Positions 31,393 through 33,977 of a DNA stretch of 64,000 nt are shown here, piece by piece; position 1 is the stretch's first letter; every line of letters begins with the position of its first letter. The notes under the pieces are model-generated. The model saw only the letters and a list, made by a program, of their open reading frames with translations, made no database searches and had not been told where the DNA came from. This stretch comes from Escherichia coli (lineage in GTDB: Bacteria; Pseudomonadota; Gammaproteobacteria; Enterobacterales; Enterobacteriaceae): NCBI RefSeq assembly GCF_003334305.1, contig NZ_QOWS01000013.1; one strand, given 5' to 3'. The position numbers and the translations under genes were made by a program.

Positions 31393-31430
31393 TGTAGGCC
31401 GGATAGGGCGTTCACGCCGCATCCGGCAGC
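31393..31430. repeat. REP (repetitive extragenic palindromic) element
   Basis: GTAGGCCGGATAGGGCGTTCACGCCGCATCCGGCA is the reverse complement of the canonical REP motif GCCGGATGCGGCGTGAACGCCTTATCCGGCCTAC; lies between yhdP and tldD. Confidence 0.85.
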
Positions 31431-31459
31431 CGTAAAAAATCCTCTACTGCAGTAACTAA

Positions 31460-32920
<1,461 letters not shown>

Positions 32921-32970
32921 TAATTTCATTATTTTCAGAAGGATAATTAATCTTTCTACGTGCACGAACG

Positions 32971-33008
32971 GTCCCCTCGCTCCTCTGGGGTTAGGGTGAG
33001 GGGAACCC
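32971..33008. repeat. GC-rich hairpin intergenic repeat (copy 1 of 2 in window)
   Basis: TCCCCTCGCTCCTCTGGGGTTAGGGTGAGGGGAA; 7-bp stem TCCCCTC/GAGGGGA shared with a second copy at ~50818. Confidence 0.6.
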
Positions 33009-33047
33009 GTTGGCACAGGTTTGTAGAACGTAACAGTACAATATGAA

Positions 33048-33977
33048 TTACTTCTCTTTCCCGCGCCCGTGCATCTCCTGAAACAATTTACCGACCTCAA
33101 CAAAATAATCCGTCAGCGAGTTGATCACGACCTGTACCTTCAGCGGCAGCTTATCTTTTTCGGTATATAACGCATAAACCGGGCGTGGATCTGACTGGTA
33201 ACGTGGTAGCAGGATCTCCAGCTCCCCGCGATTGATCTCGTTGATCACCCACATCAGCGGCACGTAGGCGATCCCAGCGCCTGCAGTCAGCCAGCGCACC
33301 AGCGTCATCGGATCATTAGTCACAAATCTCCCCTGCGGGATCAGGCGAGTCGAGATCCCTTCCGGTGCGATCAGTTCAAATTCATTGTCGGGCCGCACGC
33401 TGTATTCAAGCCATGAATGGCTACTTAAATCGGCGGGTTTTTCCGGTATGCCGTATTGTGTGAGATAGCTTTTTGCGGCGCACACCACCATTGGCATCGC
33501 GCCCAGACGGCGGGAAAACAGGCTGGAATCCTGCAACGCGCCGACGCGGATCACCACATCCAGACCGTCGGCAATCAGGTCGGGGGCAGGAATTCCGGTA
33601 ACCAGATTGACGCTCAAACCTGGGTATTCTTTCAGCATTTTTGCTGTCAGCCCGGCGAGAACATTTTGTGCCATAGTTGAAGAACAGCCAATGCGCAGCG
33701 TCCCGATGGGGGTGTTATTGAAGGCATACAGTTGCTCATGAACATCCTGCACTTCATGAAGCATACGACGGCAGCCCTGGTAGTAAATTCTACCGGCTTC
33801 GGTCAGGCCAATGCTGCGTGTGCTACGGTTTAACAGCTTTACCTGCAACTCATCTTCCAGTTTTGACACCGTCTGACTGATGGACGAAACGCTCATCTGT
33901 AGCTGTCTGGCGGCGGCGGTAAAAGAGCCAAATTCAACTACTTTGGCAAACACCGACATGCGTTTTAGTCGTTCCAT
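33048..33977 (-). CDS. aaeR: LysR-family transcriptional activator of aaeXAB
   Basis: 309-aa ORF with N-terminal LysR HTH; divergent from aaeX. Confidence 0.94.
   Translation of the reverse strand: MERLKRMSVFAKVVEFGSFTAAARQLQMSVSSISQTVSKLEDELQVKLLNRSTRSIGLTEAGRIYYQGCRRMLHEVQDVHEQLYAFNNTPIGTLRIGCSSTMAQNVLAGLTAKMLKEYPGLSVNLVTGIPAPDLIADGLDVVIRVGALQDSSLFSRRLGAMPMVVCAAKSYLTQYGIPEKPADLSSHSWLEYSVRPDNEFELIAPEGISTRLIPQGRFVTNDPMTLVRWLTAGAGIAYVPLMWVINEINRGELEILLPRYQSDPRPVYALYTEKDKLPLKVQVVINSLTDYFVEVGKLFQEMHGRGKEK

Follow-up and report, generated by a model that had tools for sequence, protein, structure and literature searches.

A contracted Box C copy downstream of tldD and a probable Box C remnant between nanA and nanT in Escherichia coli

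Gene context of the two hairpins

The stretch of DNA that was analysed (the window; 64,000 nt) is E. coli chromosome, and the 601 bp surrounding the first of the two sites described here are 100% identical to many E. coli strains. A GC-rich hairpin had been annotated at 32971-33008, downstream of tldD, together with a second copy at 50818-50852 having the same outer arms. Both were found again, and the gene context given for them, the tldD-aaeR and nanA-nanT intergenic regions, agrees with ours. At the first location (site 1), the 34-mer TCCCCTCGCTCCTCTGGGGTTAGGGTGAGGGGAA occupies positions 32972-33005, between the convergent genes tldD and aaeR, and the + strand is predicted to fold into a strong hairpin of -32.8 kcal/mol (z -3.3). 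The second location (site 2) reads TTTCCCCTCGCTCGCCCCTACCGGGTGAGGGGAAA and is placed 4 nt 3' of the nanA stop codon and 70 nt 5' of the nanT ATG. Its predicted stem has 14 bp (50818-50831 with 50839-50852), including two G.U pairs, and closes a 7-nt loop, CCCCTAC. The predicted energies at site 2 differ between strands, at -32.3 kcal/mol (z -5.1) for the sense strand and -19.1 kcal/mol (z -1.0) for the antisense strand. The coordinates of the features are collected in Table 1.

Table 1. Genes and repeat features at the two sites, in window coordinates
Feature	Position	Strand	Basis
tldD	31475..32920	+	
Site 1: Box C element, type A, with TTA linker and conserved flanks; contracted two-hexamer allele	32963..33007	+	profile-match envelope
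Site 1: C-rich block CCCCTCGCTCC, 5' arm	32973..32983	+	sequence; predicted pairing to 32994-33003
Site 1: remnant of first G block with TTA linker (GGGG TTA)	32987..32993	+	alignment A1, 11 E. coli alleles
Site 1: distal G block GGGTGAGGGG, 3' arm	32994..33003	+	sequence and predicted fold
aaeR	33048..33977	-	
nanA	49920..50813	+	
Site 2: nanA-nanT hairpin, probable collapsed type-B Box C remnant	50818..50852	+	sequence and predicted fold
nanT	50923 (true ATG)	+	

A scan of positions 30000-53000 against Rfam gave a single REP-related match, at 31397-31441 (+), between yhdP and tldD. This match, to naRNA4 (RF02564), is below threshold (36.7 bits, the gathering score being 59.5; E=0.0025) and is probably an ordinary REP element.

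The tldD-aaeR element and its alleles

Box C is a GC-rich, non-coding intergenic repeat of E. coli, ∼50 bp long, which has been described since the 1990s. Its copy number in K-12 is given in the literature as 22-32: the older surveys (Bergler; Bachellier) list 32 copies of 56 bp, and the supplementary data of Petrillo et al. 2008 (PMC2267715) contain 22. The canonical element has the form CCCCTCGCCCC-loop-GGGGAGAGGG-TTA or CCG-GGGTGAGGGG, that is, a C-rich block and two G-rich blocks, and its G-rich half amounts to a GGGTNA hexamer repeated three times in tandem. The founding Box C was sought downstream of fabI in K-12 and was absent there; the published founding copy lies on the opposite side, between fabI and ycjD (Table 1 of Kaplan et al. 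2016, PMC5100583).

The same repeat has been named several times. It was described as the PIT element by Hoyne and Maher in 2000 and as TM_ECO, an intrastrand purine-motif triplex, by Holder et al. 2015 (PMC4666352), who state that the TM_ECO motif is the former BoxC/PIT element. Kaplan et al. (PMC5100583) then presented HPG1/HPG2, a G-quadruplex-hairpin-duplex switch whose motif has four G tracts 3' of a C-rich region, and reported no connection to any known motif. Their Table 1 gives the same positions as the BoxC/TM_ECO list, which Holder et al. (PMC4666352) had published a year earlier. Thus, Box C, PIT, TM_ECO and HPG are one element under four names. Rfam holds no family matching the element, either in the window or at six loci of other taxa, and a literature search for functional work after 2016 on Box C or intrastrand triplex motifs gave nothing relevant.

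Site 1 can be placed in this family through its K-12 orthologue (L001, 2496-2530), which reads CACGAACGGTCCCCTCGCCCCTTTGGGGTGAGGGTTAGGGTGAGGGGAACC in the K-12 tldD-aaeR spacer. The orthologue is the exact reverse complement of eco:13_BoxC in the Petrillo list (PMC2267715), is TM_ECO no. 14 of Holder et al. (K-12 3390529-3390494; PMC4666352), and is HPGQ 37 of Kaplan et al. (aaeR/tldD, midpoint 3390505; PMC5100583). An nhmmer profile was built in leave-one-out fashion from 21 published Box C copies, the K-12 orthologue being omitted. Site 1 matched the profile with E=2.2e-9, over model positions 2-50 of 51 and with one 6-column deletion. By its sequence, then, site 1 is a Box C element in shortened form. 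The initial annotation had named box C as a possible family for both hairpins; this holds for site 1, and for site 2, whose profile match is weak, the assignment is only probable, with support from synteny (see below). It had also proposed a dispersed family of small repeats. A 47-nt query covering site 1 found a median of 12 places per genome by BLAST in 5,426 complete E. coli genomes, and the repeat family related to site 1 is therefore dispersed. The tldD-aaeR element itself was already known: at least three catalogues list it, each under another name, and that it is unstable between strains has been published as well.

The allele in this strain is 6 bp shorter than that of K-12, lacking the hexamer TGAGGG, one of the three GGGTNA units. 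In an alignment of 11 E. coli alleles (A1), the site forms a series with three, two or one such hexamers. All three are present in K-12, in an O157:H16 strain and in strain 138; two (-6 bp) in the window, BL21(DE3) and DA61218; and one (-12 bp) in Z247. The full, -6 and -12 alleles all segregate among the 5,426 E. coli genomes, where counts in rough identity bands were ∼2032 full, ∼2539 window-like and ∼571 shortest. The two-unit form, rather than the K-12 form, thus appears to be the commonest class at this site in E. coli.

The strict three-block pattern of Holder et al. (PMC4666352), CCCTCNCCC-N3-6-GGGNGAGGG-N3-GGGNGAGGG, matches the K-12 orthologue of site 1 and has no match in the 64-kb window, so that both window copies are degenerate derivatives, a category that Holder et al. 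themselves described. The shortening affects the predicted structure. With quadruplex folding allowed, the DNA fold of lowest predicted energy for the K-12 allele, which has four G tracts, is a quadruplex. Three G tracts are left in the window allele of site 1 and two in site 2; for neither was a quadruplex-containing fold predicted, neither contains a canonical quadruplex motif, and the window allele of site 1 is predicted to fold as a hairpin only. With one hexamer missing, site 1 is left with a plain hairpin of the C block with the distal G block, and the quadruplex or triplex potential, which depends on four G tracts or on a third block, is lost. Replication slippage between the GGG repeats could account for the hexamer loss. 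In agreement with this, Holder et al. 2015 (PMC4666352) describe the TM_ECO loci as hypervariable between strains of E. coli, 63 loci being variable, with degenerate motifs or deletions which leave a stable stem-loop as a frequent outcome.

A separate type of change was seen at this locus in a derivative of E. coli O127:H6 E2348/69 (L010; NZ_LT903847.1). Similarity to the window ends at positions 493-505 of that locus (window ∼32992), directly after GGGTT within the tldD-aaeR Box C, and an IS4-like ISEc13 transposase gene begins ∼12 bp past the break. This is a single anecdote of an IS within a Box C copy.

Origin of the nanA-nanT hairpin

Taken together, it is very probable that both hairpins belong to the Box C family, site 1 being the catalogued copy minus a hexamer and site 2 most likely a type-B copy of greater age. 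None of the three K-12 catalogues (Petrillo 2008, Holder 2015 and Kaplan 2016) lists site 2, and its match to the Box C profile is partial (nhmmer, E=0.03). It nonetheless has the C block, the CCG linker and the GGGTGAGGGG of a type-B unit, and is flanked, as such units are, by T-rich sequence on the 5' side and A-rich sequence on the 3' side.

Orthologous nanA-nanT spacers of other genera were obtained via NanA homologues. In Pseudocitrobacter faecalis the spacer contains a full Box C doublet, an inverted type A unit together with a type B unit, the type A unit fitting the strict three-block pattern. The junctions of this doublet are as in E. coli, with TGAGTT on the left and AAACGCATC...TTCATACCAAAGCG on the right. 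The Kluyvera spacer carries a degenerate Box C-like hairpin with the same junctions, and the spacers of Salmonella and Klebsiella aerogenes have no such hairpin or Box C. In Yokenella, Citrobacter, Enterobacter, Superficieibacter and Trabulsiella, REP-type (GCCGGATG-like) palindromes follow the nanA stop codon (L133, L135, L138-L141). Since different repeat families occupy this spacer in different genera, it is a hot spot for palindromic repeats, a recurrent site at which they land or are retained. The full doublet in Pseudocitrobacter, the degenerate copy in Kluyvera and the absence from Salmonella indicate that site 2 is probably a Box C remnant, of type B, collapsed and fixed. The Box C carriers at this spacer are not obviously closest relatives, and both independent insertions into a hot spot and common descent fit the distribution. 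The E. coli hairpin would have arisen from an older type-B copy which lost its middle G block, similar to the loss at site 1, and then became fixed in the species.

The near-invariance of site 2 within E. coli and the stability of its sense strand would also fit an RNA element under selection in the nan operon, which would stabilise the intercistronic RNA or slow down ribosomes that terminate at nanA. We give this reading a low, though appreciable, probability; the hairpin would then be either a Box C look-alike that evolved independently or a Box C remnant that was later recruited. In 5371 of 5409 E. coli genomes the identity of site 2 is at least 99%, in contrast to the high polymorphism of site 1; the two G.U pairs favour the transcribed strand, as seen in the predicted energies; the hairpin begins 4 nt after the nanA stop codon; and the Box C profile score is weak. 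However, an independent look-alike is hard to reconcile with the 23 nt of termini and the type-B flanks that site 2 has in common with Box C, and with the full and degenerate Box C elements at identical junctions in Pseudocitrobacter and Kluyvera. Box C copies of the common 'mismatch' form, moreover, have such a G.U asymmetry by their nature. Because Salmonella and K. aerogenes lack the hairpin and five other genera have REP elements in its place, it is not conserved across nan operons, which also argues against selection for a role in that operon. A literature search for a described nanA-nanT hairpin gave nothing relevant.

The interpretation of both hairpins as Box C is strengthened by their direct comparison. 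Sites 1 and 2 have TCCCCTCGCTC (11 nt) and GGGTGAGGGGAA (12 nt) in common, with identical order and strand, in agreement with the common outer arms first noticed. The pattern CCCCTCGCTC-N8-20-GGGTGAGGGG has two matches in the 64 kb, which are sites 1 and 2, against an expectation of 0.00 from 100 shuffles. It is consequently very improbable that the two are unrelated, coincidental hairpins of terminator type, even though each is a GC-rich stem-loop just 3' of a gene, and site 1 is in any case the exact orthologue of a catalogued repeat. A terminator-like character, which the initial annotation had entertained, was not borne out: a T run is absent 3' of either stem on both strands, no terminator-like site was predicted on either strand in 32850-33120 or 50750-50960, and published assays detected no terminator activity for the Box C family. 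Still less probable is that both sites are palindromic units of the REP/BIME type, which no other intergenic repeat of E. coli exceeds in abundance. In favour of this reading, both are intergenic GC-rich palindromes, REP elements occur in the nanA-nanT spacer of other genera, and a weak match to a REP-derived Rfam family lies elsewhere in the window. Neither sequence, however, contains the REP core of the GCCGGATG type, no Rfam family matched at either site, and it was the Box C profile that matched instead.

One further candidate in the window, a match to the Box C profile at 42633-42652 (E=1.7), was rejected, as it consists only of a GGGGAGAGGGG run without other Box C features.

Further downstream in the nanA-nanT spacer, a second, small hairpin, GTGGGCATCGCCCAC, lies at 50892-50906, a few nucleotides upstream of GGGAGA (50910-50915), the Shine-Dalgarno sequence of nanT. 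The surrounding stretch, 50877-50920 (TTCATACCAAAGCG...GCCCACCGCGGGAGACTCAC), is conserved in E. coli, Pseudocitrobacter, Kluyvera, Klebsiella aerogenes, Superficieibacter and a Citrobacter MAG, and Salmonella conserves its 3' part. The closing pair of the hairpin is G-C in E. coli, A-T in Salmonella and G-T in K. aerogenes. This hairpin may serve nanT as a conserved element in translation or processing.

Function, wider distribution and relation to known repeats

The work of Maher's group, as far as it is cited in Holder et al. (PMC4666352), found no promoter or terminator activity of these elements and no effect on RNA polymerase; the elements blocked DNA polymerase in vitro only, and in vivo DMS footprinting gave no stable triplex. 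Holder et al. also found no orientation bias relative to genes. Among the copies in Table 1 of Kaplan et al. (PMC5100583) that lie between co-directional genes, ∼6 are sense and ∼8 antisense, and a strand-specific RNA function of the whole Box C family is therefore unsupported. We infer that Box C is probably a dispersed repeat that is essentially selfish or neutral. The unusual single-strand structures of intact copies would make their loci unstable, and the copies in the window, decayed to plain hairpins, would act, if at all, as stable stem-loops only. REPs, where studied, are exonuclease barriers in mRNA. Stem-loops in the tldD 3' UTR and in the nanA-nanT intercistronic RNA could, by analogy, slow 3'-to-5' exonucleases as REP hairpins do, and the two hairpins may in this way stabilise the tldD and nanA-nanT mRNAs.

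We also searched for the arms of the element more widely, using the pattern CCCCTCGC-N8-30-GGGTGAGGGG on a set of 100,044 species genomes. At least 120 loci were found, with no enterobacterium among the matches listed. Nearly all of the matches listed show the full three-block architecture, although the pattern leaves the interior free. They include Pseudomonas sp. dw_612, Devosia, Bradyrhizobium, Hyphomonadaceae, Hyphomicrobiales, Methylobacillus, Mitsuaria and Bordetella, as well as Gemmataceae and Pirellulaceae (Planctomycetes), a Thermodesulfobacteriota MAG, a Lachnospiraceae MAG and others. For Pseudomonas sp. dw_612 at least 21 copies are listed, and their 5' flank, CTCGGTCAGT, is identical to that of E. 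coli Box C copies. Many of the copies among the matches listed form inverted doublets whose spacing is fixed within a genome, at 86-89 nt in Pseudomonas sp. dw_612 and 47 nt in a Hyphomonadaceae MAG. Inspection of the Pseudomonas doublets showed no clear target-site duplication, and where long terminal inverted repeats were sought, the inverted repeat reached only ∼5-8 nt past the Box C units.

These doublets, and the many copies of the three-block design across phyla, raise the idea that three-block repeats of the Box C type are bacteria-wide non-autonomous mobile elements, with the inverted doublet as transposition unit as in REPINs and with a putative mobilising enzyme. To our knowledge, no transposase is associated with Box C, and we hold this idea to be rather unlikely. 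Holder et al. (PMC4666352) likewise reported no tie to mobile elements. If it were true, singletons and collapsed hairpins like both sites in the window would be decay products of mobile inverted doublets. The survey of Holder et al. (PMC4666352) comprised 3610 copies, from 262 proteobacterial genomes, with the element absent from Salmonella; the matches outside the proteobacteria, several of which are MAGs, modestly extend it. Copy numbers differ strongly between species, with 143 in Enterobacter asburiae and none in Salmonella.

Two of the genomes have arrangements of their own. In Pseudomonas sp. dw_612 (L030-L049) the Box C core lies within a composite repeat of ∼190-210 nt, made up of an inverted type-B-like unit, a conserved spacer of ∼75-88 nt (…CCTGAGTTCGACTCGATATTTCAGGTCGATGTAGCTC…CTCGGTCAGT) and a type-A unit; at one locus (L037, 296-707) four units form an array with 87-88 nt spacing. 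The composite repeat, tested on one locus (L030), has no Rfam family match. The Gemmataceae MAG PMV_8.19_sub (L089-L131) accounts for 43 of the 120 loci listed, and a three-block variant, CCCCTCGCCCC-loop-GGGGAGAGGGG-YYG-GGGGTGAGGGG, occurs in these loci in more than 50 copies.

The hairpin finding that led to this analysis is correct but ordinary, as the element was already known, and its significance beyond correct annotation is small. Three small additions to what is published can be made: the three length alleles at tldD-aaeR form a clean hexamer-loss series (three, two and one GGGTNA units); the nanA-nanT hairpin, missing from the three K-12 lists, is probably a collapsed type-B copy; and the four names in the literature stand for one element.

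Compared with the Box C list of Petrillo et al. 2008 (PMC2267715), site 1 still has its C block and its distal G block, the TTA linker and the conserved flank on either side, and it differs from the K-12 entry by the missing GGGTNA hexamer and by two substitutions. Site 2 departs further from that list, lacking the whole middle block and carrying a 4-nt duplication in the C arm. With respect to TM_ECO, in which the tldD-aaeR copy is no. 14, the published hypervariability and collapsed hairpins (PMC4666352) agree with both sites; the copies in the window have two blocks, however, and the intrastrand triplex cannot form. The HPG1/HPG2 motif, to which the aaeR-tldD copy contributes as HPGQ 37, has four G tracts as published, more than remain at either site. 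REP/BIME elements and REPIN doublets resemble Box C in being short, GC-rich, multi-copy intergenic palindromes, often arranged as inverted doublets, and in the kind of spacer that they occupy, but REP/BIME is a different sequence family.
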